Shown: positions 3,583 through 37,178, counted from the first letter of the stretch. The stretch: 64,000 nt of DNA from Eubacteriales bacterium (GCA_045576795.1 JAZNHE010000113.1:6030-70029); one strand, 5' to 3'. Notes: a model not told the origin generated them from the sequence alone. A program made the numbers and translations.

Positions 3583-3605
3583 TAACCGCAGAAAGGACAA
3601 ATATA

Positions 3606-4295: not shown

Positions 4296-4310
4296 GGAGG
4301 TAAAGTAACT

Positions 4311-15581: not shown

Positions 15582-15652
15582 ATTTCCTCCAAATCGGATT
15601 TGAGTAATCTGTCAGATACAGGTCGGAATAAAGAATAAACCGTCCTCTGTAC

Positions 15653-15681
15653 ATTTTAGCACATCGGACGGTAAAAATCAA
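15653..15681 (-). promoter_or_regulatory. Sigma-A promoter for the response regulator / kinase operon
   Basis: On the minus strand: TTGATT (15681-15676), a 17-nt spacer with TGc, then TAAAAT (15658-15653). It is embedded in the loop of the hairpin accgtcc/ggacggt that follows the upstream gene. Confidence 0.6.
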
Positions 15682-15701
15682 GATATATAATTATTTGCGA
15701 G

Positions 15702-19953: not shown

Positions 19954-19966
19954 GTCCTTCCTCCTA

Positions 19967-20719
19967 TTAAAGCTCCGTTTCGGAAATTACGTATCTCTCT
20001 ATCGCCCTTCCCCAAGCGATACCTGCAGTCACAGGAAACATTTTGGCAGGTATTGACGGATACTTCTCCACACCCTCGACATTCGGAAAGTTAAGCCCTG
20101 AGGCGAGGTCGATGATCCGCAGTTTTTCAGGAAATGCGGTCTTTGACGCGTCGAATATCACAGCAGGGGCGGTGTTGATTAAAATATCAAGCCCGTCAAG
20201 CTCGGCATCCTCACAACTGAGTGTAGCCTTAACCCCCGACTCGCAAAGGTCCATTCTCGTATTTGAGCGCGAGGTGTACACTATAACCGATGCGCCAAGA
20301 TATAAGAGTATCTCCGTCAGACACTTACCTATACGCCCGTAGCCGACAATCCCGACGGTCATATCAGACGGAGCGCGCCCCTCACTTGTAAGGATTATTC
20401 CAAGAGTCGCAAGAGATGTAAGATAGGCATTCTCGAGTAAAAAATCCTCGTCTTCTCCAACGTCGAATACCTCTCCTCCCTTCTCACCGTCGCAAGATAT
20501 TCCCTTCGGTAATCCGTATCCAACAAGCAGATCTCCGTAGGAAAGCCGGTCAATAACCGTAGAAATGTCAACATTTGTTCCCGTTATGGTATGATTATCC
20601 CTACTTGAAGGAATAGGCAAGAGATAAATTGAATTTATTTTTCTTAGGTGCTCCGAGCCTCTTATATACTCTATACAGGCATCGGCACGCTTGCTGTTTT
20701 CATAAGACTGAATTATCAT
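19967..20719 (-). CDS. dpaA: Dipicolinate synthase subunit A
   Basis: A dehydrogenase-like Rossmann motif (VGIVGYGRIGK) in a protein of about 250 aa, paired with dpaB. I prefer the ATG at 20719 (RBS gggag 8 nt upstream) over the TTG at 20734 given in the ORF track. Confidence 0.85.
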   Translation of the reverse strand: MIIQSYENSKRADACIEYIRGSEHLRKINSIYLLPIPSSRDNHTITGTNVDISTVIDRLSYGDLLVGYGLPKGISCDGEKGGEVFDVGEDEDFLLENAYLTSLATLGIILTSEGRAPSDMTVGIVGYGRIGKCLTEILLYLGASVIVYTSRSNTRMDLCESGVKATLSCEDAELDGLDILINTAPAVIFDASKTAFPEKLRIIDLASGLNFPNVEGVEKYPSIPAKMFPVTAGIAWGRAIERYVISETEL

Positions 20720-20809
20720 ATTGCAAACTCCCAACGCCGCCCGACAAGAAAGATGTGGGCGGACTTACGCACGGGATGCCACCCGACAAGACAGCACCCC
20801 GTACATTCT

Positions 20810-22908: not shown

Positions 22909-23157
22909 CCGATAAAACGCGAATTTTAGGTTATTTTGTAAAATAATGTTAGCAAAACGCAACATAAAAGCATCTGCACAATCGTGCAGAGGCCTGTTTT
23001 TTATAGGTGATATTACGAGTAAAATCCGTATTTTCATCCTCGGAGTGAGAAACGACTTTTTGTACTCACTTACTTCTTTGGGTAGAAATCGTTGGCTGCC
23101 GAGCGACAGCTGTATCTACATACTCGGGGAGAAAAACAGCGATTTATACCCAAAAAA

Positions 23158-24786
23158 TCATTTATAGGTTATTTTAGCGTGGGTTCTTATCTTCTCCATA
23201 CCGTATTCATACTGAATAGTCTCTCTCCAATAATCCTCGTCATACTCTGCATTGATAGACTCAATAGCAGCTGCCTTCTTGGTCTCATAATCCTCGGAGG
23301 AGGAATCTATTCCGTAATAATCAAGATAAGACTGGAGAACCTCGTTATACATCTTCTCATAGAGTACTTCGTACTCCTCATCACTCGGAATGTATTCGCA
23401 CTCTCTTACTACGTAGTAGAATGCGAGCTTCTGCTTAACGCTCTCTTCTGCATCTGCATCGAGCACGTCACGCCAATTCTCACCGCTTGATACACTCATA
23501 TACGCGGTTGCAAATGCATCAAACGTCTGATAATACTGTGAATATCCACCGTTATAATACATATTCTCCATAGTGTTTATAACAGTTGCACAGTAGTTCT
23601 CTATCTCTGACTCGGGAATCTCCTTGAACTCCGAGTTATCAACAACGTATCTCCAGAATCTCTCGTCAATGATAGTGTTAACGCTATCCTCGTATTCCTT
23701 GTTAAGCTCTGCACGGACAGATGCATAGTATTTATCAAGCAGGGTTGCTCCGTCGTACTGTGCGAGGTCCTCCGCCTTGAGCTTGAGAGTATCGGTTACG
23801 AATGCATCATTGAGCTCGGGTACGTCGTAATCCTTGGTAAGATTGATATATACCTCAAAGTGAGCAGTCTTGCCGCGCAGACTCTCCTCCTGATAATCAT
23901 GGGGGAAGTATGCCTCAACCTCAAGAATGGGCTTTACGGAATTATCGATCTTGAATGCGTGAGTTACCTTAACGTTCTCATAGCTTGCGATATTGCCGCT
24001 CGTGGGTGTGAATTTCTCTGTAATAGCTGAGCCGAGGAGAACCTTGGGATTGGTTATAAATGCACGGAATCCCTCTCCCCACTTGGTATCGAGCTCGGGA
24101 TCATTGAGGTCTATTACCGCGCTCTGATCTTTTACCGTCTTACCGTCATTGGTGGTATAGTTGTAGGTAATAGCGTAAATATTTGCCTCAGCAGTGATTT
24201 TATCAAGCTTTTCAAGAGTAGCATAGTCCTGCTGGTTCTTACCTATAAGATTATATTCAAAGCCTGCAACAAATGAGCCGGAGCCTATCTCAAGGTCGTA
24301 TATGCCCGTAGTAAAGTTACAGCCGCCGTCGAAGTACACCTTCTCCTCACCGTTAAGCGTGTAGCCTCTGTAATAAATACCAACTACGTCGCCTGCGGAT
24401 ATGGTCACATTCTTCTTAAAGGTGGGTGCTGTGTCGGGTGTTATCTTGTTCTTGCAAAGCGCCTTGATTACAGCGATGTTGAAGTCAAGGTCGGTAGGCT
24501 TGGGAACATCTATCGTTACGTCATAGCTGCTATATATATCGGGAGATACATATACGTACTTGGACAGATCGTCCTTCATAAAATCTATGCTCTTATTCTT
24601 TGACTTGTTGAAAAAGTCAAACTTTGCATTAAGAGCAAAGAACACGCTTGTAAGGATACCTACAAGTGCAAGCACTGCAAAGGATATAAGGAATATCTTT
24701 GTGCGCTTCTGTCTTTTAGCCTCGGCGGTTACTTCCTTCTCCGCCTGGGTTTGAGGCTCAACGTTTTTATTTTTCTTATTAGCCAT
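23158..24786 (-). CDS. Membrane-anchored, extracytoplasmic trigger-factor-like protein (FKBP-type PPIase plus TF C-terminal-like domain)
   Basis: 542 aa with a basic N-terminus and one TM helix (IFLISFAVLALVGILTSVFFAL). A TF PPIase-like segment GDVVGIYYRGYTLNGEEKVYFDGG...LEIGSGSFVAGFEYNLIGK is followed by LRGKTAHFEVYINLTKDYDVPELNDAF, as in trigger factor. Confidence 0.7.
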   Translation of the reverse strand: MANKKNKNVEPQTQAEKEVTAEAKRQKRTKIFLISFAVLALVGILTSVFFALNAKFDFFNKSKNKSIDFMKDDLSKYVYVSPDIYSSYDVTIDVPKPTDLDFNIAVIKALCKNKITPDTAPTFKKNVTISAGDVVGIYYRGYTLNGEEKVYFDGGCNFTTGIYDLEIGSGSFVAGFEYNLIGKNQQDYATLEKLDKITAEANIYAITYNYTTNDGKTVKDQSAVIDLNDPELDTKWGEGFRAFITNPKVLLGSAITEKFTPTSGNIASYENVKVTHAFKIDNSVKPILEVEAYFPHDYQEESLRGKTAHFEVYINLTKDYDVPELNDAFVTDTLKLKAEDLAQYDGATLLDKYYASVRAELNKEYEDSVNTIIDERFWRYVVDNSEFKEIPESEIENYCATVINTMENMYYNGGYSQYYQTFDAFATAYMSVSSGENWRDVLDADAEESVKQKLAFYYVVRECEYIPSDEEYEVLYEKMYNEVLQSYLDYYGIDSSSEDYETKKAAAIESINAEYDEDYWRETIQYEYGMEKIRTHAKITYK

Positions 24787-24801
24787 TATTATTCTCCAAT
24801 A

Positions 24802-25233
24802 TTATTTGAATGAATCTGCGTATGCCGTAGCAAGACTATCGCATCTTTCGTTATATTCGTGTCCGTTGTGTCCCTTTATCCATACAAAGGTCACCTTGTG
24901 GATGCGCGTCAGCTCATAAAGTCTTTCCCAGAGGTCCGGATTCTTCAGTCCCCCGGATTTGCTCCAGCCCTTCTGCTGCCACGTGTATATCCATCCCTCG
25001 TTAAATGCATCAACGAGATATTTGGAATCGGACTGCAGAGTAACCATGCACGGCTCCTTCAAGGCGGACAAGCCCTCGATAGCGCCGATAAGCTCCATTC
25101 TGTTGTTGGTGGTTTCCCTCTCGCCGCCCGAAAGCTCCTTCTCATACTTGCCGTACACGAGAATTGCACCCCAGCCTCCCGGACCGGGATTTCCTCTGCA
25201 CGCGCCATCTGTGTAAAGACTTACTACTTTCAT
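24802..25233 (-). CDS. rnhA: Ribonuclease HI
   Basis: 143 aa: [27 protein letters not shown] and [15 protein letters not shown] are RNase H type 1 hallmarks. Confidence 0.93.
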
Positions 25234-25298
25234 ATGCTTCCTTTATAATTAAAGGACTGTACCGTAGTGGGACAGTCCTCTAATTGAGTCAGTTGAAA

Positions 25299-27623
25299 TT
25301 ATTCAGCTGCAGCCTCATCCTTAAAGGTGTAGGAGATGTGCTCGTAGCTGATTCTATTCTCATCGGTATCCTTTTCCTCAAGAAGGTAGTTAAATACCTT
25401 ATCAAACTGTGCCGCATGAATATGGTCATCAAGATTGTAGGAGTAAGAAAGACCGTACTGAGCGTAAAGAAGCGACATATTGTCAAGGCTCTTCTTGAGC
25501 TCCTTCTTCTCGTCCTTTGTCAGCTTAACGTCGTCGCCGAAGCAATCTGCAAGAACGTAGATGAGAACTATGTCACGTACAGTATCCTCTGCCTCTGCCT
25601 GAACCTTTGCCTTTGCATCCTCGATAGTCTCCTTCTGTGTCTGTGCAAGAAGATACTTATCAAAGTCGCCCTCGTAGTAAACGTAATTTGTTACGTTGCT
25701 GGAGGAGGAAGATGAGGATGTACCTGAATTGTACTTGCCCTCGTAGAAGTTGTACTTGTAGGTATTCATTATTGCCTTGTAAGCTTCCTTAACCGCTCTC
25801 TTGGGGAGCTTGTCACCGAAGGTAATGTACTTGTTAGCAAGAGTGAATATTTCCTTGGCAAGATTCTGCTTAATAGTGGATTTATAAGTAGCCTCAAGGG
25901 TATCGTACTGATATTCCTTGTAATCCTTAACAAGTGCATCGTTAAGATTTACGTTGCCGTCTGTTGCCTTAAGAATCTCTGCGATCTTATCGTCAATCTT
26001 CTTCTGAGATTCGTCAAGCTTAGCCTTTTCAGTAAGGTGCTTGTTATAAGCGTTGGTTATATTGTTATTAAGGTTGGTAAGCTCGCTCTCTGCGGTGCTC
26101 TTGGTGGTAGCACGCTTGCTGTTGGCATCATTGAGTGCCTTAAGAGCGGAGTCATACGCCTTCTTTACGTCTGCATGAGCGGTGTAGAGCTCAACAAGCT
26201 CTCCAACGAGAGTCGCAAGAGTCTTGTCACCGTTCTTGATATTCTCGTTGTTAAGAGTATCAAAGGTGTATACGGTGTTGTGCTCGTGCTCTTCATCGGT
26301 GTGCTCGTGCTCCTCAGTGGTCTGACCGTTGAGTGCAGAATAGTACTCACGAACAACTACCTCTGCGGAGATATCCTCTACGTCGATGTAGTAGAGCGGG
26401 AATACTAAGTATGTGATTTCCTTGCCGTTAAGCTCGAGAGCCTCACCGTAAATGTTCTTTTCAGTAGTCTTCTTTGTGGTGGTGTCACCCTCTGCAATAG
26501 CATCGAAGGGAGTGTCCTTGAGCATGATAGACTCGTTCATGCCCTCTTCGCTTACGGTCCAGTTCACCTTAACCTTGGAATACTCAACCTCAACGCTTAC
26601 AGGATCGCCATCCTTAACAGCGATGCTCTCTGTAACCTTGAAGCTGTCCTCCTTGCCTATCTCGTTGCCTACAAGCTCACCGAGGAAGGTCTTGGGAGCC
26701 TCAGCCTCATCAGCATTAGCCTGAACAAGCATGTTTGTTACGTTAACGGTGTAGTAGCCGTCAGAACCGAGTGTACCGTAAAGCGCAGGATCCTTCTCGT
26801 TATCCCACTTAAACTTCATGGTGTAGGAAACAAATGCAAAGTCACCGTCCTGAACGGTAATAGGACTGTTGTCCTTGAGAATGCTCTCAACCTTTACGTC
26901 GGTGTAAGTCTTTTCCGCTACGTTATCGCCCTCACCAACGGTAATCTTTACTTCAGGTGTAGTAACACCTACGTACAAACCGAGAAGAGCTGCATAGAAC
27001 TCTGCAGGCTCCTTATCAGCAGTCTTAAGATCTACATACTCGCAGTAAACCTTAGTGCCGTCGGGCTTGGTGTAGCTAACTGAAACGATATCATCCTTGC
27101 CTACGCGATTTGCGGATGAGGTGGTGTAGATATAATCCTTGATGTCCTCAAAGCCTGCGTCATCATCCGTAGCCTCACGAAGAATGTGATCGGATACGAG
27201 CTTGTTAAGGCCCTCGAGGGTGCTGAGACCGAGCTGAATTGTGGAGGGCTTGGACTCATCCATCTTAATTGCGTAAATCATATTGCTGTAATCCTCGTTG
27301 GGCTCACCGCCAACAAAGCCTACGTAGCAATAGTAGAACGCATCATACTTCTCGGGCTTGCCCTCAAAGAGCTTGTCATCTGTACCTGCAAGCTTAAGAA
27401 GTGCTGCCGCGATAGTTTCGTCAACCTTAACGTTTCTCTTATCCTCGTCAGTGCCGAAGTCACCGTTTTCAATAACGAGAGTCTGAAGAGCCGCAAGGAA
27501 TTCCTGTGACTTGAATGTTGCATACTTTGACATATCGTCCTTAACATAGTTGTAAGCACAACCGGTAAGAGCGAGGAATGCCATAGCAACAACAAGAATT
27601 AAACTGATAATTCTCTTTTTCAT
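25299..27623 (-). CDS. Large lipoprotein with degenerate trigger-factor/FKBP-like modules
   Basis: 774 aa with a lipobox (FLALTGC). It has two modules of the form D.V.VSY...DG...LLG..VG....V.V and a LNGKEITYLVF segment resembling TF, plus a poly-Ser linker. The helical, acidic C-terminal part resembles the 542-aa neighbour. Confidence 0.6.
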   Translation of the reverse strand: MKKRIISLILVVAMAFLALTGCAYNYVKDDMSKYATFKSQEFLAALQTLVIENGDFGTDEDKRNVKVDETIAAALLKLAGTDDKLFEGKPEKYDAFYYCYVGFVGGEPNEDYSNMIYAIKMDESKPSTIQLGLSTLEGLNKLVSDHILREATDDDAGFEDIKDYIYTTSSANRVGKDDIVSVSYTKPDGTKVYCEYVDLKTADKEPAEFYAALLGLYVGVTTPEVKITVGEGDNVAEKTYTDVKVESILKDNSPITVQDGDFAFVSYTMKFKWDNEKDPALYGTLGSDGYYTVNVTNMLVQANADEAEAPKTFLGELVGNEIGKEDSFKVTESIAVKDGDPVSVEVEYSKVKVNWTVSEEGMNESIMLKDTPFDAIAEGDTTTKKTTEKNIYGEALELNGKEITYLVFPLYYIDVEDISAEVVVREYYSALNGQTTEEHEHTDEEHEHNTVYTFDTLNNENIKNGDKTLATLVGELVELYTAHADVKKAYDSALKALNDANSKRATTKSTAESELTNLNNNITNAYNKHLTEKAKLDESQKKIDDKIAEILKATDGNVNLNDALVKDYKEYQYDTLEATYKSTIKQNLAKEIFTLANKYITFGDKLPKRAVKEAYKAIMNTYKYNFYEGKYNSGTSSSSSSSNVTNYVYYEGDFDKYLLAQTQKETIEDAKAKVQAEAEDTVRDIVLIYVLADCFGDDVKLTKDEKKELKKSLDNMSLLYAQYGLSYSYNLDDHIHAAQFDKVFNYLLEEKDTDENRISYEHISYTFKDEAAAE

Positions 27624-27729
27624 TGTTTCTTCCTCTATAATAAATTTTTTTGAACTGTTTTACGCGCCGATCACTCGGCGATAGGCGTAATAAACGTGAA
27701 AAAACACACGCTTACAATTACGCCATAAC

Positions 27730-27758
27730 ATTATAGCATATTATTTTATAAAATGCAA
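27730..27758 (-). promoter_or_regulatory. Strong sigma-A promoter for the 774-aa lipoprotein gene
   Basis: On the minus strand: TTGCAT (27758-27753), a 17-nt spacer ending in TGc, then TATAAT (27735-27730). Confidence 0.7.
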
Positions 27759-27864
27759 ACCTTTTTTGAAAAATAAATTAAAAATAATTTTTTTCTTTAT
27801 TTATGGACGCTCATTGCGGTTTTTTGTACATATTCCTACAAAAAACGTCCGTAAAAACGAGTGA

Positions 27865-30800
27865 TCAGTCGTCGTAGCCGATTGTGCCGTCGATTTTCTC
27901 ACCGTTAAGGAGTGAGATATAATTCCTCACAATCTTCTTAAATGCAAACGTAGAGATATAGAAGTCCGTTACCTCGCCCTTAAACTCGGTTGAGGTTGTG
28001 CCGTCGCTGTAAACAGTGGTACGGTTCTTGGAAAGTGAAACCATCACACGTCTGTCATCTATACGGTAGAATTCGTACGTATATGAGTCGATATAGTTAT
28101 CTCTCTGAACTACCTCCACGGTCATCGTCATAACCTTGGGTGAGGTGAGCATCAGCTCCGCCTTCTCCTCATCGGAAAGATCTAGCACACCCTGGTAGCG
28201 TGTAAGCTGAACAACCTCGTATACACTGTTGAAGTACGCTGCGCCGAGAGTGTCCTTTGAGCCCGGGTAATACGTCATACCGTTGCCGTTACCCATTGTT
28301 TTGTTGTAGAGAGCGGCGAGACTGTACCATTCACTGTCGGCATCATCAGCCAGCTTTTTCAGCTCGGTCTCGTATGCATCCTCGGAGGCACGAACGTTAA
28401 CACGCTCCTCCGTGAACGCCATAGAGCCGTCAAACTCATAGTCGCTTATCTTATATTCGCCGTCAACGTATCCGCCGTAGACCTCCTTGAACACTACCTC
28501 GAAGTCATAAGAGCCTTTTATATCGGACATATTGAAGTCGAGCTCGATCTTGGCAAGCTTATCAATACTCATCATAAGGAGATTACGTCTTGCCCACAGA
28601 TCGACAAAGTCACTGTCAAGGAATTCAAAGTCTTTGGCGTCAACCACCGCAACGAGATCGTACATATCCGATCCGATATATCTTATTTTGTTGCCGTTCT
28701 CATCGATCTGCTCCTCACTGATGTAAAGAGTAAATCCGAGAGTTGAGAGCCAGCCAAAGTCACTGAGAGCATCGTTATCGTTCCCCTCAACGCCCTCACT
28801 CGCGTCAAATATTCCTCTTGGAAGCTCAAAATAAATCTTGTGAGCGTACAAGTGGTATTTATCCATATTTTCAACAGTGAGTCCGACCGCAACCGTAGTA
28901 CCCGAGAAGCCGACCGCACTATTACTGTCAGTACCGATACCGCCAAGCAGCTTTACAACTCCCTCGCACACGGAGGAGTTAAGTCCGTAGATGCTGTTGC
29001 CGTTGGTCAGAGTGTTCTCATAAAGAGATTCGCCGTAGTAGGGGTCTCTGAACGATGCATTGCAGAATTTGAAGGATACAACAGGCTCGCTTGTTACACA
29101 GTATTTTATCTCCGGAATCTCATATACCGTGAACTCTCTCACTATCTCGTAATAGTATGAGGTGTCAAATACCGTAGCCGTAGCAGGTCCCTTGCTCTTG
29201 CCGAGCAGGATTGTCTTAAGCGGTGCAAGCTTGCTCTCGTCGGTAATATCCGCTATGCATACGAGCGAGGTCTTCTCTTCACTCTTCACACCGTCAACCG
29301 TGTAGTAATAAGAAATGTTTACGTAGGAATCCTCGCTTACCGTAGCGACCGTGTTGCCATCCTTGTCAAAAATCGACACGACCCCGGTCAAAACATACTT
29401 TTCCTGAGATGAAAGCGCGTTTTCCTTGGTGTACTCAATATCGAGAGTTATCTCGTTTCCTTCACCGAGCTTGCCAACGGATTTGCCGATAAATTCAGCG
29501 CGGTCCGCATCCGACAGATCGGCAAGGGAGATCACTCCGTGTAAATCGTATTGCGTAGTCTCACCGTTGTGGGTGTATCTGTAGACCACCTTCACACTGT
29601 CGCTGTCGGTGACACTTCCCTCTTTGCTTTCGCCGTCGCTTGTGATGATGGACTCTATCTCACTTATAACGTAGCTGTACGATACGCTATCGGAGTTAGC
29701 AAAATCTACAAGCTTGTTCTCGGAGTCGTAAAGTGAGCTTATAAGAGTAATCAGAATTCTGTCATCGTGTATTCCGACGTGCTCTCCGACAAGCATATTC
29801 TTTATTCTGGCGTAATCAGCGTGACTTGCAAGCTTTGAGAGGTCAAACGAGGTCAAAACAGACGTTGCCTCCTTGTGATAGCCGTTAAAGTCCGCGCTGT
29901 CGGGTAGGTACGACGTGCCCTTATCAATCGATGAATATACGTCAGCGACAAATATAACCTCGGAGCCGTCTATAACCTTATCCGCATCCTCGGGATTTTT
30001 AATCTTGTCATTGTCATAGGCCTTATCGTATACCGTGTTGATCCAGCTCTTGAAGTCGGTCGTAAGGTAAGGACCGTAGGTGGACTCACCCTCAAGGCCC
30101 TCGGCAACAAGTCTGCCCTTGACAAATTCATTAAAGCCCGCCAGAGCGTAGCTGAAATACTCGCCTGACGTGTAGTAGACGCAATTTCTGCCGTCTACCA
30201 TAAAGTAGTATCCGTTACCGGAAACCGCCTTTTTTCCTATGAGGAGAACGTGGTAATCCTCCGTGCCCTCAATTATCTTTTTGGTGTTATTATCTCTTTG
30301 TCCGTACATAAAGGAAACGGATGTGTATTCATTGCCGGAGAAGCCGTACTCGCGCAAGAGCGCGTTTCTTCTCTCAATGTTGCTCTCCGTATCCTCGGGC
30401 GGAAGCGGTATACGCTCCGTAAAGTAAGGAGTTCCGATAGCGGTGCAAAGATAGGTAAGATAATATATCATACCGTATCCGTCACCCGTTTCAACCGCAT
30501 ACAGACTCTCGTAGTCAAAGTCGCCCTCTGCCGTATAAATGGGGGGCGTGTAAGGGATTACACCCTCTATACCGTTAACGTAGTAGTGGAACATAAAGCT
30601 TCCAAGATCGTCGGGGTATCTTGAAACACCGAATCTTCCGGTAGGATTATTCACTTCTATGGCGAGAATATCGCTCTCCTCAACAGAGGGATAAGCAACC
30701 GGCTGATTAAGGTATGAGCTCTCCCCTTCAAGCAGATCCAGAGAAGGTCTTGTAGATGGGGTTGAGCCTGAATTTTTGTTCTTTAATATTGCCGATACCG

Positions 30801-30891
30801 TAAAATACGCGGCACCGAGAATTATAGACACTACAAGAAGACAGATTGTGGTTATCTGTGCTTTACTGAGTTTTCTTTCTACTTTTTTCAC
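27865..30891 (-). CDS. 1008-aa N-terminally anchored extracytoplasmic protein at the distal end of the GldG-type ABC operon (DUF4340-like position)
   Basis: A single N-terminal TM helix (ITTICLLVVSIILGAAYFTVSAIL) and a beta-rich, Tyr/Asp/Ser-rich body. The start is 11 nt after the preceding GldG-like gene. Assignment to DUF4340 rests on synteny only. Confidence 0.55.
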   Translation of the reverse strand: MKKVERKLSKAQITTICLLVVSIILGAAYFTVSAILKNKNSGSTPSTRPSLDLLEGESSYLNQPVAYPSVEESDILAIEVNNPTGRFGVSRYPDDLGSFMFHYYVNGIEGVIPYTPPIYTAEGDFDYESLYAVETGDGYGMIYYLTYLCTAIGTPYFTERIPLPPEDTESNIERRNALLREYGFSGNEYTSVSFMYGQRDNNTKKIIEGTEDYHVLLIGKKAVSGNGYYFMVDGRNCVYYTSGEYFSYALAGFNEFVKGRLVAEGLEGESTYGPYLTTDFKSWINTVYDKAYDNDKIKNPEDADKVIDGSEVIFVADVYSSIDKGTSYLPDSADFNGYHKEATSVLTSFDLSKLASHADYARIKNMLVGEHVGIHDDRILITLISSLYDSENKLVDFANSDSVSYSYVISEIESIITSDGESKEGSVTDSDSVKVVYRYTHNGETTQYDLHGVISLADLSDADRAEFIGKSVGKLGEGNEITLDIEYTKENALSSQEKYVLTGVVSIFDKDGNTVATVSEDSYVNISYYYTVDGVKSEEKTSLVCIADITDESKLAPLKTILLGKSKGPATATVFDTSYYYEIVREFTVYEIPEIKYCVTSEPVVSFKFCNASFRDPYYGESLYENTLTNGNSIYGLNSSVCEGVVKLLGGIGTDSNSAVGFSGTTVAVGLTVENMDKYHLYAHKIYFELPRGIFDASEGVEGNDNDALSDFGWLSTLGFTLYISEEQIDENGNKIRYIGSDMYDLVAVVDAKDFEFLDSDFVDLWARRNLLMMSIDKLAKIELDFNMSDIKGSYDFEVVFKEVYGGYVDGEYKISDYEFDGSMAFTEERVNVRASEDAYETELKKLADDADSEWYSLAALYNKTMGNGNGMTYYPGSKDTLGAAYFNSVYEVVQLTRYQGVLDLSDEEKAELMLTSPKVMTMTVEVVQRDNYIDSYTYEFYRIDDRRVMVSLSKNRTTVYSDGTTSTEFKGEVTDFYISTFAFKKIVRNYISLLNGEKIDGTIGYDD

Positions 30892-30902
30892 ATCTGCCTC
30901 CT

Positions 30903-32579
30903 TTACAAGAATTTACGCTTAACGAATACAACTACACCAAGTGCAAGAATTGACACGGGTACAGCCATAACGATGATGGTGTACGCCGTTTTTGCACCGT
31001 TACCGAAGCCCTTGTTCGTCTTTACAACCTCGGTTGCATCTGACGAATAAATATCTGTCGGTGTGGTTGAGAGCGTTGTGCTGACCGTCTGCTTACCGCC
31101 GTAGGAGGGCGAGTTGAGTGAAAGGCCGCCGAGCTCTATCGTAGCATATCTGTCCGTTCTTGAAATATTGCTTATTACAGAAGCAAGAATGTTATAGTTT
31201 GCGTATGATGAGTTGCCGAGCATATCGTTTGAATAGAAGTCGGCACTGTTTGTGCAGAAAATGTATGAATTTGTTCTCTCCGACGTATATCCGTCAAGAT
31301 GCGCTCTTACGCTGGCGGCAATAAGAGTTCTCTCCTCATCTATACCGCTGATAATGGAATCTCCTGTATAAACCACCGCGCTGTCCGCGCTCTTCATAAA
31401 GTCGGCATAGTTACGTGTGCCGTACTTGTTGCCGTGCTCTACCATCTCCTCACCGCCGTCAAAGGCGCAATAGAGGTAACCCGTGTTGGAAAATACCATC
31501 TTAGGTGCGGAGGAGAGTCCCGAGTAGGAGTTGTAATACGCATAGCCGAAGCTCTGATCGTCGTTGTCATACATACCGACAAACGTAGAGCCGTCGGCAT
31601 CCCCCTCAATCTCGGCAAACAGACTGTTCTCACGGTCACGAACCAAGCCGTCGCCAAAGCCTATTCCCCACTCCTTAAGGAATTCCTCAAGGTTGGTGAG
31701 CCTTACGTCATACGCCTTATTTACAATGATTGCACCTGCGTTGTTAACAAGGTATCTGTCAAGCTTCTCCGTCTCGCTGACGTAACTGAAATCATCAAGT
31801 CTGTCGGGATCGTAGGTGAAATCCTCTGTGGGATTGTTGATAATCAAGAGCGCGCAGTCATCGGGAATTCTCTCGAGATTTTCATCGTTCAGGCTAAGAG
31901 TTTTTATCGTAAGTCCGCGCTCCATAAGCAGCTCCGCAAAATTAGCGGTGGCAAGGCTTTTATCCGAATCGGGATTCTCGGGATCGTAATACGTCTCGCC
32001 ATGGTCGGTAACAAAGTATGCGGCAGGCTGATTTATAGCTGTTATAGACGCCAGAATTGACGCCATTCTGTATTCTCCGTTGTAGGAGAAGTTGTCGCTT
32101 GTCCAGAAGGTAGCCGCATTTACCACGCGGTATTTTGCACCGTATGAAACTATCATATCGGTAGCGGAAATCGTATCCCTCGATGTAGTCTTATACATTG
32201 ACACGGCTGTGGGGTCAAGAGCTGCATTGACAGCTTCCACGGTTACGTTATCAAACATATTATCGAGCCTTAAAGCCATGAAATACGTTGCACGCATGGC
32301 GTCGGAGGCTATAAGATAATCGGGATCTGTGCAGAACGTTATTTTAATGTTTTTCACATTTCCGTTTTCATCAGGATCGAGTATTTCGTGGCACACAGCC
32401 TCCATCTTATCGCTGAGGGTGTAGAAGCCCTCGGGAGTAAGGTCTGTTACCAGCATATTCTTTGAGAAAACGTGCGAAATAAGAAGATTGAAGGCGAGAA
32501 GCACAACTATTCCGACTATCGTTATAGCCGAATACACCTTGGTGCGTGTGCTTTTACCTTTGAAAATTGATTTCTTCAT
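30903..32579 (-). CDS. GldG-like ABC-transporter auxiliary protein, copy 2
   Basis: 558 aa, bitopic, with N-terminal (ITIVGIVVLLAFNLLISHVF) and C-terminal (IIVMAVPVSILALGVVVFV) TM helices. Central motifs YFVTDHGE, ALLIINNPTEDF and LDRYLVNNAGAIIV are typical of the ABC_transp_aux/GldG family. Confidence 0.75.
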   Translation of the reverse strand: MKKSIFKGKSTRTKVYSAITIVGIVVLLAFNLLISHVFSKNMLVTDLTPEGFYTLSDKMEAVCHEILDPDENGNVKNIKITFCTDPDYLIASDAMRATYFMALRLDNMFDNVTVEAVNAALDPTAVSMYKTTSRDTISATDMIVSYGAKYRVVNAATFWTSDNFSYNGEYRMASILASITAINQPAAYFVTDHGETYYDPENPDSDKSLATANFAELLMERGLTIKTLSLNDENLERIPDDCALLIINNPTEDFTYDPDRLDDFSYVSETEKLDRYLVNNAGAIIVNKAYDVRLTNLEEFLKEWGIGFGDGLVRDRENSLFAEIEGDADGSTFVGMYDNDDQSFGYAYYNSYSGLSSAPKMVFSNTGYLYCAFDGGEEMVEHGNKYGTRNYADFMKSADSAVVYTGDSIISGIDEERTLIAASVRAHLDGYTSERTNSYIFCTNSADFYSNDMLGNSSYANYNILASVISNISRTDRYATIELGGLSLNSPSYGGKQTVSTTLSTTPTDIYSSDATEVVKTNKGFGNGAKTAYTIIVMAVPVSILALGVVVFVKRKFL

Positions 32580-32582
32580 AGG

Positions 32583-34115
32583 TTATCTGTTCTTTCTCCT
32601 TATGATTATTACTGTGCCGACAACCGCAAGAGTAACGGGAATTGCCATTATTATCGCAGTGTAAGCCTTTGCTCTGCCCATCGTGAAGTTCTCAAGCACC
32701 TGCGTGTCATAAATTACACTGTTGCAGCCGTAGGGAGCAGAGTTGGAATCAAACAGCACCTCAAGAGTTGCGTAAATAAAGTCTTTGTTGGAATATCCGT
32801 CGGAAATAAATGCGTCGGCAGCGGTGATGTATGCCGTGGGAATTACCACGACTGTGCTTTCCTTACCGTCATCGTGTACTCTTTCGGAATAAGCCGCCAC
32901 GCAGTATCCTCCCTCACTGTCCGTGACCTTACCGCCGGCATTGGTGGATGAGGTCGTGCCTGATAAGAGCAGAGGATTTGCACCGAGAGACTCGTCAAGC
33001 TCAAGCGCGGTAGCCTGGCTTATAAGCACACGGTCTGCGCTGAACGACGTAACCTTATTGAAAATCTCGTTTGACACATCGTTGTCTGCGTGTGTCGCAA
33101 CAAAGGTATAGCCGTCGGGAGTAATAGCGTTGGAATTCTCCTTAACTATATCCCTTATAAGCTGACCGTTCTCGTTGTATTCGCCGCTGAGTGATATTCC
33201 CCATTTTGCGAGAAGCTCCTCAAGGTTTTTCAGCTCCTTTACGTAGGTGTCGAGCGCAACGTAGAGCTTACCACCTCTTTCAAGGTAGTCCTCAAGCTTA
33301 TCTATTTCGCCTCTTACACCCGAGCCCTCCTTTGCCTTCTCAAAGTCACTCGTGGGGTTGGATATGATTATCATTCCCGCATCGGCAGGAATTTCATCTT
33401 TTCTTAAGTTGATTACGCCTACGTAGTATCCTGCGCAGTTAAGCAGGTTGGAAAACGCTACGTCTGCCGTCTCACCGTGATTCTGTGTAAAGTACACGGT
33501 AGGATGATTATCATTGAGCACCCAGGATATCATCGACGCCATTACCTCCTCGCCGTTGTAGGCGGAGATAGCCATTGAGCCGTCAAGCGTGTAAAAATCA
33601 ATGAATCCTGCGGAGGTTGCCGTATCCGTAAGCACACGGATGCTGCGATGCTCTCCCTCTCCGCACTCAAATATTACGGAGCTCTGGTTGATGGTGTATT
33701 TGCCACCGTCCTTATACTGTTCAAAATCGACGATATTTTTTTCCTCGTCAAGCTTGGTCAGCATATTTACGAATTTGAGCTCTATGAGCTCGGGATATCT
33801 CTTCTCAAACTCACGCGCCGTAGTAAGCACGAACTTACCCGTGTCGTGTGTTTCAAGAGTAGACTCGGGATAGCAGAAGGTTATCTTCACCTTCTTACCC
33901 ATAAGGATATGCTCCTCAAACAATGTGTCGGTATTACCCGATATTGAGAGGTCATCCTCTTTTGGTGAATATAGGTACAATCCGAAAGCAGACGTCAGGG
34001 TATAGGCAAGAATATTGAGAAATACCACCGCGACAATAATTATCACGGTCAGGGTGGTACCCATATCCCTCGGGTCTACGATCGATCGCCATAGACTTTT
34101 CAAAAACTTTTTCAT
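32583..34115 (-). CDS. GldG-like ABC-transporter auxiliary protein, copy 1
   Basis: 510 aa with the same bitopic topology. Motifs: VYFTQNHGE, GMIIISNPTSDF, LEDYLERGGKLYVALD. Confidence 0.75.
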   Translation of the reverse strand: MKKFLKSLWRSIVDPRDMGTTLTVIIIVAVVFLNILAYTLTSAFGLYLYSPKEDDLSISGNTDTLFEEHILMGKKVKITFCYPESTLETHDTGKFVLTTAREFEKRYPELIELKFVNMLTKLDEEKNIVDFEQYKDGGKYTINQSSVIFECGEGEHRSIRVLTDTATSAGFIDFYTLDGSMAISAYNGEEVMASMISWVLNDNHPTVYFTQNHGETADVAFSNLLNCAGYYVGVINLRKDEIPADAGMIIISNPTSDFEKAKEGSGVRGEIDKLEDYLERGGKLYVALDTYVKELKNLEELLAKWGISLSGEYNENGQLIRDIVKENSNAITPDGYTFVATHADNDVSNEIFNKVTSFSADRVLISQATALELDESLGANPLLLSGTTSSTNAGGKVTDSEGGYCVAAYSERVHDDGKESTVVVIPTAYITAADAFISDGYSNKDFIYATLEVLFDSNSAPYGCNSVIYDTQVLENFTMGRAKAYTAIIMAIPVTLAVVGTVIIIRRKNR

Positions 34116-34139
34116 ATTACCGTTACTTCCCGTCCTCGA

Positions 34140-34847
34140 TTATCCGAATCTGCGGCGGTCATAAACTCTGATAGTAAGCCAGAGGAATACTCCGCTCACA
34201 GAGAGATAATATATCACCGATGCAAATTCAAAGTATCCGTTGACAAAGCTCTGGAATCTCGTGAATATAGAAAGAGCGTCGAAAACGTATCTTATCCAAT
34301 ACTTGGTAGGCAGAAGCGCATTTATAAGGCCAATGCCGAGGAAGCCGAGAATTATAGCTATCGTACCTATTGCCGCAGAGAGCTGGTTCTCCGTGAGCGC
34401 AGATACGAAAAGTCCTATCGAGATAAATACCATTCCTACGAGCAGGAGTGCGATAAGATTGCCGAAAAGCACCGCAAACTGAAGCTGTGTGTAAGGAATG
34501 AGGAAGAGGAAATAGAGTGAGGTAAGCGCGGTAGCTGCCGCGAATACCGTGTAGGATGCGAGGAACTTGCCGAACACCATAGCCGGAAGCGAAATGGGCG
34601 CGGTAAGAATGAGCTGCTCCGTCTTTGTCTTTCTCTCCTCGCTGAACGACTTCATCGTAAGCAGAGGAAGTGCTATCGCGGAGAATATGAGCATAAGAGT
34701 GAAGTAGTTTGTAACGTCACTCGACATTGAGAACATCGTCGTATAGCTGAACAGTATTCCTGCAATGGCAAGGTAGATCACGAGGAATACGTATCCTATA
34801 ACTCCCGTGAAATAGCTGCGCAGCTCTCTTTTATAAATTGCTAACAT
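34140..34847 (-). CDS. ABC-2 type permease (GldF-like)
   Basis: 235 aa with about 6 TM helices. It begins MLAIYKRELRSYFTGVIGYVF, which is typical of ABC-2 family permeases, and sits directly downstream of the ATPase. Confidence 0.85.
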   Translation of the reverse strand: MLAIYKRELRSYFTGVIGYVFLVIYLAIAGILFSYTTMFSMSSDVTNYFTLMLIFSAIALPLLTMKSFSEERKTKTEQLILTAPISLPAMVFGKFLASYTVFAAATALTSLYFLFLIPYTQLQFAVLFGNLIALLLVGMVFISIGLFVSALTENQLSAAIGTIAIILGFLGIGLINALLPTKYWIRYVFDALSIFTRFQSFVNGYFEFASVIYYLSVSGVFLWLTIRVYDRRRFG

Positions 34848-34859
34848 TTCATACCCTCC

Positions 34860-35828
34860 TTAACGTCTTTGCTTTCTGCTCTCGCCCGTTATTCCGTCGG
34901 AGCGGTCTACAAGTCGTATAAATACTGTTTCAAGGTCGGTGCCGTGAGGCTCCATTCCCAACATTACCCATGAACGTGAAACGCAGAGGTTGAAGAGTGG
35001 CTTTCTTATATCCACGCCCTTTTCACTCTCTACGATATAAGTAAACGCATCGAGGTCGCGCTCGCCCGTAGCGTCAACGCTCTTGACACCGTTAAGTCTG
35101 TTTATAGCTGACTCCACATCTCTTGCAGGGCCGCATATTTTAACACGGTATCTGTATCCGTCCTCAATCGTCTTTACAACCTCGTCGGTCAGCTCGTCCG
35201 CGATTATCTTACCCTTGTTAATAATGATAACTCTCTCGCATACTGCCTGTACCTCGGCAAGAATGTGAGTGGAGAGCACTACCGTGTGACGGCGTGCGAG
35301 GGTACGGAGCAGGTTTCTCACAGCGATAATCTGCTTGGGGTCAAGGCCTACCGTGGGCTCGTCGAAAATCAGCACCTTGGGGTCGCCTATGAGTGCCTGG
35401 GCTATGCCGACTCTCTGCTTGTTACCCTTTGACAGATTGCGGATGAGTCTGTCCTTTACCTCATTTATCTTGGTAACCGATATTATCTCGGCAAGATGAG
35501 CCTCTCTGTCAAGCTGACAGCCCTTGAGGTCGTATACGAAATTAAGGTACTCCTTAACCGTCATCTCGGGATATAACGGAGGCTGCTCGGGTAGGAAGCC
35601 TATATCCTTTTTCGCTTTTATCGGGTCGTCTATAATGTTGACTCCGTTTATATACACCTCACCCGAGGTTGAGGAAAGGTATCCTGTGAGGATGTTCATA
35701 GCCGTACTCTTACCCGCACCGTTTGGGCCGAGAAGACCTACTATTTCTCCCTCTCCTATCTCAAAGCTTACGTCGTTAAGAGCAAAGTTTGAGCCGTATC
35801 GCTTAACCAAGTTTTTGACCTTTATCAT
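34860..35828 (-). CDS. ABC transporter ATP-binding protein (GldA-like)
   Basis: 322 aa with Walker A GPNGAGKST, the signature LSKGNKQRVGIA, Walker B VLIFDEPTVGLD and the H-loop STHIL. Confidence 0.93.
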   Translation of the reverse strand: MIKVKNLVKRYGSNFALNDVSFEIGEGEIVGLLGPNGAGKSTAMNILTGYLSSTSGEVYINGVNIIDDPIKAKKDIGFLPEQPPLYPEMTVKEYLNFVYDLKGCQLDREAHLAEIISVTKINEVKDRLIRNLSKGNKQRVGIAQALIGDPKVLIFDEPTVGLDPKQIIAVRNLLRTLARRHTVVLSTHILAEVQAVCERVIIINKGKIIADELTDEVVKTIEDGYRYRVKICGPARDVESAINRLNGVKSVDATGERDLDAFTYIVESEKGVDIRKPLFNLCVSRSWVMLGMEPHGTDLETVFIRLVDRSDGITGESRKQRR

Positions 35829-36106
35829 AAATGCATCTCATCGGTATCTGCCGATGTCCTTTCGGTTATATACATATTTTTAACATATTAACACGTCGCG
35901 CACACATATCACGACGATTTTATATTATAGCACATAATTGTAAATAAATTATTAACAAAATAGATATTTTCAAATAAAAATAATGGATATTCTGTAAAAA
36001 ACTACACATCGCGACATATCTTGTACAAAAAGCCGCACAAAAAATGAAAAAATAGCAAAAAAGGCAAAAAACGGAAGTATAAAGAGTGGAATATTCCCTC
36101 TCTTGC

Positions 36107-36135
36107 TTGACAAAACGTTTTTTCGGTTGTATAAT
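36107..36135 (+). promoter_or_regulatory. Consensus sigma-A promoter for trpS
   Basis: TTGACA (36107-36112), a 17-nt spacer, then TATAAT (36130-36135). The leader is only about 35 nt. Confidence 0.75.
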
Positions 36136-36176
36136 CATTGTATTAAAGCTTGACCTACCCGAAAGGAGATAAAAAA

Positions 36177-37178
36177 ATGGCAGAAAACGAAAAGAAAATA
36201 GTTTTTTCGGGCGTTCAGCCGTCAGGTAACCTAACTCTCGGCAACTATCTCGGTGCGATAAAGAACTTCTCGCGCTTTTCCGAGGAATACAAGACCTTCT
36301 ATTCCGTGGTTGACCTCCACGCTATCACGGTAAGACAGGTTCCTGCCGAATTAAGAAAGAGAACCTATGAAACCCTCGCGCTCTATATGGCGTGCGGCCT
36401 TGATTATACCAAAAACACACTGTTTGTACAGTCACACGTTCCGCAGCACGCGGAGCTCGGATGGATTCTTGACTGCTACACTATGTTCGGCGAGCTGTCA
36501 AGAATGACACAGTTCAAGGACAAGAGCGCAAAGAACGCGCAGAACATCAATGCAGGTCTGTTTACCTACCCTGCTCTTATGGCGGCAGATATACTTCTCT
36601 ATCAGACCGACGTTGTTCCCGTAGGTGTTGACCAGAAGCAGCACCTCGAGCTTGCACGTGACGTAGCTATGAGATTTAACCAGATATATTCCGACACCTT
36701 TAAGATTCCCGAGGGATACATCTCAAAGGACACTATGAAGATAATGTCACTGACAGAGCCCACGGCAAAAATGTCGAAATCCGACCCTAACCCCGCTGCC
36801 GTGGTGTATATTCTCGACAGCAAGGACGACATTATGAGAAAATTCAAGAAGGCTGTCACCGACTCCGATGCAGAGGTACGCTACGACGTAGAGAACAAGC
36901 CGGGCGTGTCAAATCTTATGACTATTTACCGCGCCTTCACCGGTAAGGAATTCTCCGAGATAGAGAACGAATTCAAGGGACGGGGCTACGGCGACTTCAA
37001 GAGTGCGGTAGGCGAGGTCTGTGCCGACGGTCTGTCCGGCGTAAGAGATGAATTCTCACGTCTTATAGCAGACAAGGCTCATCTCGAGGAGGTAATGAAG
37101 ATAGGCGCGCAGGATGCATACGGTTATGCCCGTCGCACTATGTCCAAGGTAAGACGTAAGATAGGCTTTGTAAACTGA
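36177..37178 (+). CDS. trpS: Tryptophan--tRNA ligase
   Basis: Class I motifs: GVQPSGNLTLGNYLG (HIGH-like) and KMSKS (AKMSKSD). The ATG at 36177, with RBS aaaggag, is preferred over the upstream TTG in the ORF track. Confidence 0.93.
   Translation: MAENEKKIVFSGVQPSGNLTLGNYLGAIKNFSRFSEEYKTFYSVVDLHAITVRQVPAELRKRTYETLALYMACGLDYTKNTLFVQSHVPQHAELGWILDCYTMFGELSRMTQFKDKSAKNAQNINAGLFTYPALMAADILLYQTDVVPVGVDQKQHLELARDVAMRFNQIYSDTFKIPEGYISKDTMKIMSLTEPTAKMSKSDPNPAAVVYILDSKDDIMRKFKKAVTDSDAEVRYDVENKPGVSNLMTIYRAFTGKEFSEIENEFKGRGYGDFKSAVGEVCADGLSGVRDEFSRLIADKAHLEEVMKIGAQDAYGYARRTMSKVRRKIGFVN

Follow-up and report, generated by a model that had tools for sequence, protein, structure and literature searches.

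The analyzed window, a 64,000-nt stretch of DNA from an Eubacteriales bacterium, carries on its minus strand five open reading frames packed as one array with intervening gaps of 12, 24, 3, and 11 nt. In the direction of transcription they encode an ABC ATPase of 322 aa (34860–35828), which is GldA-like and has an ABCA/NosF-like nucleotide-binding domain (NBD) with a C-terminal extension; a GldF/NosY-like ABC-2 permease of 235 aa (34140–34847); two paralogous proteins of the GldG (GIFT-domain) family with a transmembrane (TM) helix at both ends, G1 (510 aa, 32583–34115) and G2 (558 aa, 30903–32579, with paralogue-specific insertions); and an N-terminally anchored, acidic, beta-rich ectoprotein of 1008 aa, derived from DUF4340 (27865–30891), to which we refer as the giant. 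The GTG start of the giant is preceded by AAGGAGG, and its homologs align from residue 1. Because no gap exceeds 24 nt and a strong ribosome-binding site serves the giant, the five genes form a single operon; the first-pass annotation of this DNA had likewise described five same-strand genes 3–24 nt apart, and all of its reading frames were recovered.

Upstream of the ATPase gene, a consensus scan placed a promoter-like site at 35944–35917, with an extended −10 element of the sigma-A type, TGTGCTATAAT, at 35924–35934 on the minus strand. Aligned with seven related loci, this element hardly varies, and because a conserved sigma-A extended −10 precedes the operon, we propose that it is expressed in vegetative cells. 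Directly downstream of the giant, on the same strand, lies the gene of a 774-aa lipoprotein with the lipobox LTGC (25299–27623), separated from it by 241 nt and equipped with its own promoter-like site (27759–27730). The lipoprotein gene occupies this position in essentially all loci, those of a sister clade with different flanks among them, so that it may be associated with the cassette; for its product, family searches gave no more than a weak match to Trigger_C (E = 0.075). A gene for a TM-anchored protein resembling trigger factor is also found downstream of the cassette in nearly all loci. As to the host, the window contains GerA (15702–17120), SpoIIE (48525–50960), and a dipicolinate-synthase-like gene pair (19384–20734), sporulation genes typical of Clostridia that mark it, by gene content, as a monoderm spore former. 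Both the presence of sporulation genes and the lack of a gliding or type IX secretion system (T9SS) context had been remarked on before, and both hold: no gliding, gld, spr, or T9SS genes occur among the open reading frames of the window. We found there no bacteriocin, regulator, or sensor gene beside the operon and no sporulation gene adjoining it, and nothing among the neighborhood genes suggests a glycan or lipid pathway.

All sequence motifs of a functional ATPase are intact: the Walker A (GPNGAGKS), the Q-loop, the signature (LSKGNKQR), the Walker B with its catalytic glutamate (VLIFDEP), and the H-loop. The protein matches the Pfam family ABC_tran (PF00005) with 118 bits (5.4e-34), and its best NCBIfam model is GldA (TIGR03522), matched over its full length with 298.8 bits (E = 4.6e-89), below the cut-off of 402.6. 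The subfamilies DrrA (1.7e-56) and lantibiotic protection (3.1e-51) are matched as well. Its nearest solved NBDs are those of ABCA3, ABCA1, and ABCA4 (E about 1e-61), followed by NosF (5e-41) and LptB. The permease has 6–7 hydrophobic segments and passes the cut-off of ABC2_membrane_3 (PF12698; 41.7 bits against 31.6), while its sole meaningful NCBIfam match is a full-length one to GldF (TIGR03518) of 109 bits (E = 3.7e-31), below the cut-off of 288.5. No solved relative of the permease was detectable by sequence, and we assume the ABC-2 (type V) fold for it from its Pfam membership.

G1 and G2 are full-length paralogs (26% identity, E = 6e-24 by BLASTP), which bears out the GldG duplication claimed in the first-pass annotation, as do the TM helices that it had placed at both ends of each protein (residues 15–33 and 482–500 of G1, 17–35 and 535–553 of G2, all termini being basic). 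Of the three GldG motifs that it had ascribed to both, HGE and NPT.DF are indeed shared, but only G1 has an exact YL..GG, for which G2 reads YLVNNA. A search with the ABC_transp_aux model (PF09822) was similarly divided, since G1 passes the gathering threshold of 34.7 with 37.1 bits and G2, with 29.6 bits, does not; G2 is nevertheless homologous to the GldG protein of Subdoligranulum variabile (E = 6e-12). In all clades G2 constitutes an orthologous group apart from G1, and invariant HGE, P..D, and WG motifs are common to the two groups. No NCBIfam family, the GldG models included, matched either protein at E ≤ 0.01. The AF2 model of G1 (pLDDT 83.8) was compared with solved structures using Foldseek, the matches being OST48/Wbp1 (6c26_B, E = 2.3e-9) and the N-terminal domain of IFT52 (5fms_B, E = 1.2e-8, TM 0.77, rmsd 3.5 Å), with the glutamine amidotransferases coming after these. 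The model thus assigns to the G1 ectodomain a GIFT fold, that is, an alpha/beta fold resembling class I glutamine amidotransferases, the assignment covering G1. OST48/Wbp1 is membrane-anchored and has two luminal domains; both it and IFT52, however, are eukaryotic proteins outside ABC transporters, whose identity with G1 is only 13–14%. The GIFT domain of Wbp1 has been proposed as a binding site for sugars or lipid-linked oligosaccharides or as a docking platform (PMC7226087).

The only TM helix of the giant spans residues 18–36, in keeping with the single N-terminal anchor reported for it earlier, and the ectodomain carries a net charge of −80 and contains 8.3% Tyr. It belongs to a compact family (441 of 1.84e9 representatives at E ≤ 1e-3), whose full-length members measure about 915–1115 aa. 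Within a conserved N-proximal domain (residues 50–270), residues ~175–262 (30106–30369, minus strand) make up a DUF4340 core motif, which in the window protein scores 21 bits against a gathering threshold of 25 and covers profile positions 22–108 of the 183 in PF14238. In the family, however, 25 of 32 members match PF14238 at E ≤ 0.01 (best 2e-9), and individually scanned orthologs reach 26–38 bits, above the threshold, always at the same position as in the window giant. The same stretch is the only one that hhalign aligned with the DUF4340 protein of S. variabile, and DUF4340 is, at the level of sequence, the sole recognizable domain of the giant. It is followed by three tandem beta modules of ~100–125 aa (residues 271–612; 29056–30081, minus strand), a stalk-like region of variable copy number whose segments align with each other with hhalign probabilities of 36–84%. 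No other part of the protein is as poorly conserved in the conservation profile, and in family members of 1084–1114 aa residues ~400–535 are tandemly duplicated. The same profile delimits a distal and a C-terminal domain (residues 613–1008; 27868–29055, minus strand), with residues 613–775 as the most conserved segment. Pfam, a PDB sequence search, and Foldseek returned no relatives of residues 613–1008, within which fall both peptide patterns used to retrieve all loci. On the basis of the AF2 model (pLDDT 78), the repeat alignments, the tandem duplication, and the conservation profile, we propose that the giant is laid out as a DUF4340 base, a repeat stalk of variable copy number, and a conserved distal domain.

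We then considered the distribution of the cassette, which the first-pass annotation had marked for profiling. The order ATPase-permease-G1-G2-giant is kept in 79 species-level loci (about 80 species-level MAGs overall), also in the sister clade with changed flanks, and because the same genes recur in so many species-level genomes, the array is not due to chance. In every related genome examined the giant, with its probable DUF4340 core, adjoins the GldG genes, so that the link of the giant to GldG-type operons, whose absence would by that annotation have counted against it, holds. The related loci without exception belong to a single group of uncultured gut Clostridia that are related to each other, and the unrelated genes trpS and rnhA are syntenic in the same loci; gene order alone is therefore weak evidence for functional coupling.

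The operon resembles a canonical four-gene cassette consisting of an ATPase, an ABC-2 permease, one two-TM GldG protein, and a short N-anchored DUF4340 protein, in an order that the window shares. Such a cassette is annotated on plasmid p195_1 of Bradyrhizobium sp. 195 (IVB26_RS39690–39675), and a further example is the SAR11 set OG688/OG1772/OG1815/OG1814. Another is found in S. variabile (OY725868.1, locus L083), a cultured monoderm member of the Oscillospiraceae, the family-level neighborhood of the window host, which has one G protein and a DUF4340 protein of 354 aa; the window proteins are 46% (ATPase), 39% (permease), 25% (G1), and 22% (G2) identical to their counterparts there. With a cassette in S. 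variabile, a monoderm host is not exceptional, and the exceptionality implied by the first-pass annotation was not upheld: with examples in Bradyrhizobium and S. variabile, GldG/DUF4340 cassettes extend beyond the gliding Bacteroidota, and a PF09822 protein has been reported in the exoproteome of Caldicellulosiruptor (PMC5865380). What sets the window apart from the canonical form is that it has two fixed GldG paralogs instead of one, and a DUF4340 protein of about 1000 aa instead of 175–355 aa, in which one recognizable DUF4340 core is followed by a stalk of repeats and by two domains that are novel. By sequence comparison, the window operon is a lineage-specific derived form of the widespread GldG/DUF4340 cassette, and the new elements of its lineage are the fixed G1/G2 pair and the ~1000-aa DUF4340 protein, both kept in about 80 MAGs.

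Three component families and the GldG topology are also common to GldA/GldF/GldG of Flavobacterium johnsoniae; the window differs from that system by its monoderm, spore-forming host, its duplicated G protein, and its giant DUF4340 partner. The family membership proposed in the first-pass annotation stands, as GldA and GldF are the best, full-length models and G1 passes PF09822. Orthology to the Bacteroidota proteins is another matter, and we rejected it: the NCBIfam equivalog cut-offs for GldA, GldF, and GldG are all missed, so that "GldAFG" denotes a family resemblance here. The view that the operon encodes a true ortholog of the gliding transporter, with a role in surface motility or T9SS, can point to GldA and GldF as its top NCBIfam models; it is effectively refuted by scores far below the cut-offs (298.8 and 109 bits), by the lack of GldG model matches for G1 and G2, by the missing gld, spr, and T9SS genes in the window, and by a monoderm host that offers no outer membrane for a T9SS. 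GldAFG of Flavobacterium has no assigned substrate (PMC9127263), and none of the homologs that we considered has one.

The five genes encode an elaborated ABC machine of the ABC-2 permease/GldG (GIFT-domain)/DUF4340 type, for which we consider the following picture probable. The core of the machine would be a permease dimer to which a dimer of the ATPase is bound. In canonical systems a GldG homodimer is predicted, AF-multimer models of the SAR11 homologs having placed four homodimers, that of the DUF4340 protein included, in one assembly (bioRxiv 10.64898/2025.12.11.693642); here, G1 and G2 would instead pair as a pseudo-symmetric heterodimer whose ectodomains, anchored through four TM helices, form a crown. 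The subunit with DUF4340, presumably enlarged from ~175–355 to ~1000 aa, would dock onto this crown through its membrane-proximal DUF4340 base; beyond the base would come a stalk of 3–4 repeated beta modules and then the distal domain, acidic and conserved, which would extend into the peptidoglycan or through it. With low certainty, the type-V-like permease might be driven by ATP hydrolysis and could either take an envelope substrate, be it lipid-linked or a glycan, out of the outer leaflet, for transfer to the giant by way of the G ectodomains, or transmit force to these ectodomains. The proposed envelope machine would thus deliver such a substrate, or force, from the membrane to the wall outside. 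The export or scaffold machine suggested in the first-pass annotation is a reasonable reading as well.

A model for the paired ectodomains is offered by the ABCA exporters, whose NBDs are the closest to the window ATPase and which share its type V/ABC-2 lineage. ABCA exporters bear two non-identical large extracytoplasmic domains on the transporter, and these receive lipid. By analogy, G1/G2 may be a functional counterpart of the ECD1/ECD2 pair, although the ABCA proteins are eukaryotic single polypeptides with ectodomains within their TM domains that are not GIFT domains, and they have no DUF4340 partner. A bolder version of our proposal, which we advance as a speculation of low probability, is that the G1/G2 heterodimer and the giant make up an ATP-powered conduit or strut that spans the monoderm wall and brings force or a cargo, lipid-linked or glycan, to the cell surface, with G1/G2 acting like the paired ectodomains of ABCA exporters and the repeat stalk of variable length tuned to wall thickness. 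If true, such a device would correspond, in a Gram-positive cell, to the ABC machines that bridge the periplasm of diderms, and it would give the first mechanistic insight into the GldG/DUF4340 class, to which GldAFG of gliding bacteria belongs.

Other functions should be weighed against this proposal. A mechanotransducer like NosDFY or FtsEX would transport nothing; ATP hydrolysis would power conformational work in the ectodomains of G1/G2 and the giant, by which surface proteins are assembled, folded, or released in concert with the lipoprotein and the trigger-factor-like protein encoded downstream. NosDFY, which matures N2O reductase, uses its ABC core on behalf of a large extracytoplasmic partner and not for a classical solute. 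Its NBD, NosF, is closely related to the window ATPase and one of the nearest solved ones, and both systems have a permease of the NosY/GldF type; the partner, NosD, is a beta-helix and neither a GIFT nor a DUF4340 protein, and the window lacks nos genes. The GIFT domains of OST48 and IFT52 are non-catalytic scaffolds, which fits such a role, as do the two genes found behind nearly every copy of the cassette and a trigger-factor-like lipoprotein ~2 kb from the S. variabile cassette. Nevertheless, we judge this reading unlikely, as ABCA-type NBDs outscore NosF. Furthermore, the lipoprotein lies 241 nt off with a promoter-like site of its own, the trigger-factor-like gene is absent from that position in locus L081, and the syntenic block includes the functionally unrelated rnhA, so that it may reflect inheritance and not function.

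The matches of the ATPase to DrrA and to lantibiotic protection could be taken to indicate an ABC-2 resistance or immunity exporter of the daunorubicin, lantibiotic, or bacitracin type, with the large ectoproteins as accessory shields. The GldA match is much better, though, GldF is the only meaningful match of the permease, the promoter looks constitutive, and no bacteriocin, regulator, or sensor gene adjoins the operon; immunity transporters are not known to have GldG or DUF4340 partners, and we regard such a function as very improbable. No more credible is a sporulation-specific machine in the intermembrane space between mother cell and forespore, the one site at which a monoderm has two membranes and which would mimic the diderm setting of most GldG/DUF4340 systems. 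Most described GldG systems belong to diderm hosts, and the GerA, SpoIIE, and dipicolinate-synthase-like genes speak for it, but none of them adjoins the operon, and the upstream promoter is of the sigma-A type and not of the sigma-E, -F, -G, or -K types. S. variabile, moreover, carries the canonical cassette and is described as non-spore-forming.

Finally, the 5′ UTR of the operon contains a conserved element (35839–35863, minus strand) in which an SD-like GAAAGGA (35863–35857) is directly followed by a hairpin (35856–35839) with stem arms CATCGG and CCGATG and the loop CAGATA, the ATG lying 10 nt further on. All five loci with GAAAGGR at normal spacing lack the hairpin. Where GAAAGGR lies far from the ATG, the hairpin follows it directly in 31 of 36 loci, in 29 distinct sequences whose stems covary (mean z −2.9).

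The cassette consists of five minus-strand genes at exactly the coordinates proposed in the first-pass annotation, separated by gaps of 12, 24, 3 and 11 nt. They encode an ABC ATPase (A, 34860–35828, 322 aa), an ABC-2 permease (F, 34140–34847, 235 aa), two GldG-family proteins (G1, 32583–34115, 510 aa; G2, 30903–32579, 558 aa) and a giant protein of 1008 aa (27865–30891). A carries the complete set of catalytic motifs and F has six to seven hydrophobic segments. G1 and G2 each have one transmembrane helix near either end, with basic termini, and share the HGE and NPT.DF motifs, while the exact YL..GG is found in G1 only. The giant has a GTG start preceded by AAGGAGG, and the alignment of its homologues begins at residue 1; a single transmembrane helix (residues 18–36) is followed by a Tyr-rich ectodomain with a net charge of −80.

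To assign families, we compared the five proteins with Pfam and NCBIfam. A matched ABC_tran with 118.2 bits (5.4e-34, cut-off 25) and F matched ABC2_membrane_3 with 41.7 bits (cut-off 31.6). In the HMM searches with ABC_transp_aux and DUF4340 that the first-pass annotation had proposed, G1 passed the former (37.1 bits, cut-off 34.7), with G2 falling under the same cut-off at 29.6 bits, and several orthologs of the giant scored 26–38 bits with DUF4340, over the cut-off of 25 that the giant itself, at 21 bits, did not reach. The first-ranked NCBIfam models were GldA for A (4.6e-89) and GldF for F (3.7e-31), both over the full length, yet both scores were far under the equivalog cut-offs, and G1 and G2 matched no NCBIfam model. 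A, F, G1 and G2 therefore share families with GldA, GldF and GldG but are not gliding orthologs, and the proposed identification holds at the family level.

The ABC-2/GldG/DUF4340 class is spread over many phyla and is required for gliding in Flavobacterium, but we know of no member with a known substrate or mechanism. A tblastn search of annotated plasmid records with the permease led us to two informative loci. The operon annotated on Bradyrhizobium sp. 195 p195_1 encodes an ABC ATPase (345 aa), an ABC permease (233 aa), a "Gldg family protein" (511 aa) and a "DUF4340 domain-containing protein" (175 aa); at 9763–10866 of this locus the DUF4340 gene overlaps a downstream gene of the HupE/UreJ family (Ni/Co transporter-like), an anecdotal observation that may point to a function connected with metals in Bradyrhizobium and its relatives. 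In the cultured Oscillospiraceae member Subdoligranulum variabile, the ATPase is 369 aa long and the permease 287 aa; a single GldG of 493 aa (55.7 bits with PF09822, and a DUF7088 match) is accompanied by a DUF4340 protein of 354 aa (119.9 bits). Identity to the S. variabile proteins was 46% for A, 39% for F, 25% for G1 (E=4e-12) and 22% for G2 (E=6e-12); the giant showed no similarity to them at the BLAST level, and in a profile comparison with the S. variabile DUF4340 core only its residues 175–249 aligned. Elsewhere, a PF09822 protein occurs in the Caldicellulosiruptor exoproteome (PMC5865380), a DUF4340 gene was reported as essential in Verrucomicrobium (PMC12283558), and a SAR11 DUF4340 orthogroup has conserved adjoining ABC components, AF-multimer placing its DUF4340 protein in an assembly of four homodimers (bioRxiv 10.64898/2025.12.11.693642). 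Taken together, these cassettes and reports establish that the class is known, widespread and present in monoderms, and that the window holds a derived form of it. The locus is no unexpected transplant of gliding machinery; the canonical cassette is already found in S. variabile, and the gliding cut-offs are missed. What is new is the duplicated GldG and the giant modular DUF4340 subunit, set on a known but uncharacterized kind of system.

The duplication is real and old. G1 and G2 are full-length paralogs (26% identity, E=6e-24), and a genome scan recovered 79 species-level loci, all from metagenome-assembled genomes labelled Clostridia, Eubacteriales, Oscillospiraceae or "uncultured Ruminococcus" and, where the source was named, from the guts of ruminants and other herbivores. 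Where contigs were long enough, tblastn revealed a common array of a divergent trpS, A, F, G1, G2, the giant, a lipoprotein of ~700–770 aa, rnhA and a TM-anchored trigger-factor-like protein, with identities of 63–86% for A, 61–94% for F, 28–72% for G1, 33–68% for G2 and 25–58% for the giant. Gene order by itself says little about function here, because the unrelated trpS and rnhA are syntenic as well. A stronger test of linkage is the sister clade, reached through the most divergent giant (L079), in which the flanks have changed: trpS is absent in one locus (L080) and a PFOR gene is inserted in the other (L081), but A-F-G1-G2-giant, a 707 or 760 aa protein and RNase H are retained, with giants of 1016–1089 aa. 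Over both clades, the G1 and G2 sequences separate cleanly into two orthologous groups, each with paralogue-specific insertions, from which we conclude that the duplication is older than the lineage's radiation and that both copies have been maintained; the invariant residues common to the two include an Asn in TM1, HGE, P..D and WG. Only members of the lineage were among the matches listed in a homolog search with G1, and tblastn of G1 against plasmids returned nothing.

The giant's association with GldG-type operons, also proposed in the first pass, is supported by this conserved order and by a DUF4340 match in 25 of 32 family members (best E=2e-9), always at residues ~150–280 and covering profile positions ~22–108 of 183. 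Profile self-comparison identified three related modules at residues 271–395, 396–515 and 516–612 (hhalign probabilities 36–84%), and a module at ~400–535 is tandemly duplicated in family members of 1084–1114 aa. Conservation is highest in the N-proximal DUF4340-containing domain (50–270) and at residues ~601–760, and lowest in the central repeats. Given the related repeats, this conservation profile and the variation in module number, the giant can be read as a DUF4340 base on a membrane anchor, followed by a repeat stalk of variable length and a conserved distal head. It is not a simple DUF4340 repeat protein, since residues 613–775 and 776–1008, tried as further copies, were unrelated to the DUF4340 region by hhalign. 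We had also suspected FKBP/trigger-factor PPIase-like modules in the central repeats and in the downstream lipoprotein, and rejected them: Pfam found nothing at E<=10 in any segment of the giant, and BLASTP between the two proteins gave no match. The AF2 model (pLDDT 78.3, pTM 0.63) consists for the most part of beta-rich modules, and Foldseek with the whole chain found no meaningful match in the PDB. When 1.84 billion representatives were searched exhaustively with a profile, only 441 proteins came up at E<=1e-3, of which 210 reached E<=1e-30, with full-length members of roughly 915–1115 aa; judged by these profiles, the giants are a compact family, restricted to the lineage and only just connected to ordinary DUF4340 proteins.

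Sequence searches of the PDB gave nothing useful for G1, for the permease or for the profile of the giant. The solved nucleotide-binding domains nearest to A are those of ABCA3, ABCA1 and ABCA4 (E about 1e-61 to 1e-57), followed by NosF (5e-41) and LptB (1e-40). All of them are known to work with a large extracytoplasmic domain or bridge; their systems pull lipids out of the membrane, except that NosDFY instead transmits force. The AF2 model of G1 (pLDDT 83.8, pTM 0.77) matched OST48/Wbp1 (6c26_B, E=2.3e-9; also 6s7t_G) and the N-terminal domain of IFT52 (5fms_B, E=1.2e-8, target TM 0.77, rmsd 3.5 Å), with class I glutamine amidotransferases at lower rank. The predicted fold is that of a GIFT domain, of the class common to IFT52 and OST48 and named after GldG and IFT52; those of OST48/Wbp1 have been proposed to bind sugars or lipid-linked oligosaccharides, or to act as docking platforms (PMC7226087). 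In our preferred reading, an A2F2 core would carry a heterodimeric G1/G2 GIFT crown in place of the G homodimer, the DUF4340 base of the giant would dock, its stalk and head would project into the wall, and this ATP-driven machine may pass an envelope component, lipid-linked or glycan, towards the outside. Two differentiated GldG subunits make the complex asymmetric, an aid to structural modelling and to the assignment of interfaces, and the base-stalk-head subunit suggests that short DUF4340 proteins serve to reach away from the membrane; the asymmetry and this architecture provide structural hypotheses of use throughout the class. For now this is of limited value, since the Clostridia that carry the variant are uncultured inhabitants of the rumen and hindgut; the practical entry point is the cultured S. 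variabile with its simpler cassette.

The main alternative to the outward transfer of an envelope component is a pure mechanotransducer, which would fit if the downstream lipoprotein (25299–27623, minus strand, 774 aa, no Pfam family, weak Trigger_C) and the foldase-like, TM-anchored trigger-factor-like protein (23158–24786, minus strand, 542 aa) are true partners. These two genes and the RNase HI gene between them (24802–25233, minus strand) lie downstream of the cassette in almost every related genome, and those for the lipoprotein and RNase H are also retained in the sister clade, whose flanks are different; the lipoprotein gene has its own extended −10 promoter-like site (27759–27730). In S. 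variabile, a 389-aa trigger-factor-like lipoprotein encoded on the opposite strand ~2 kb from the canonical cassette (15055–16224 of that locus) resembles the 542-aa protein (BLASTP E=1e-11), a neighborhood that echoes the one described here. A resistance or immunity exporter has one point in its favor, generic ATPase similarity; a defence system is excluded, PADLOC having returned generic ABC-ATPase similarity only. Gliding orthology is likewise excluded by the equivalog scores and by the genomic context. The window contains no gliding or T9SS genes, as first reported, and does contain GerA, SpoIIE and a dipicolinate-synthase-like pair, which identify the host as a spore-forming Clostridium-type organism. 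Against a sporulation-specific role speaks a conserved sigma-A-type extended −10 promoter upstream of A (TGTGCTATAAT, 35934–35924, minus strand), a sequence feature that argues for vegetative expression of the cassette.

Between this promoter and the ATPase gene lies a further element (35839–35863, minus strand), in which an SD-like GAAAGGA, ~29 nt upstream of the ATG, is directly followed by a hairpin (35856–35839). GAAAGGR was found 18–48 nt upstream of the ATPase start in 36 of 71 related loci, with a hairpin directly 3′ of it in 31 of these 36, while none of the five loci with a normally spaced GAAAGGR had one. The hairpins comprise 29 distinct sequences with clear stem covariation (mean z −2.9), and the layout of GAAAGGA-type motif, 5–8 bp hairpin, 6–11 nt and ATG is seen at the same position among L001–L078. 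The element has the appearance of a hairpin-bridged (split) ribosome-binding site. Over 22500–36500, the hairpin element included, there was no match in Rfam. Just upstream of the divergent trpS there is a perfect 12/12 sigma-70 consensus promoter (TTGACA-17-TATAAT, 36107–36135, plus strand); Rfam found no T-box leader upstream of it, although tRNA synthetase genes of Firmicutes commonly have one.

Finally, several other genes in the window deserve mention. Three consecutive ORFs (214, 229 and 199 aa; 2938–4910, plus strand) and a 786-aa ORF (56511–58871, plus strand) had no Pfam match at E<=1e-5. The sole Pfam match of a 1339-aa ORF (9400–13419, minus strand) is a copper amine oxidase N-terminal-like domain at residues 352–420, and its product is a large protein that is probably located at the surface or associated with the wall. 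At 5213–8261 (minus strand) the methionine synthase appears to be split: the 789-aa MetH has no activation domain, and an overlapping ORF of 228 aa carries it (Met_synt_B12), with MTHFR adjoining the two.
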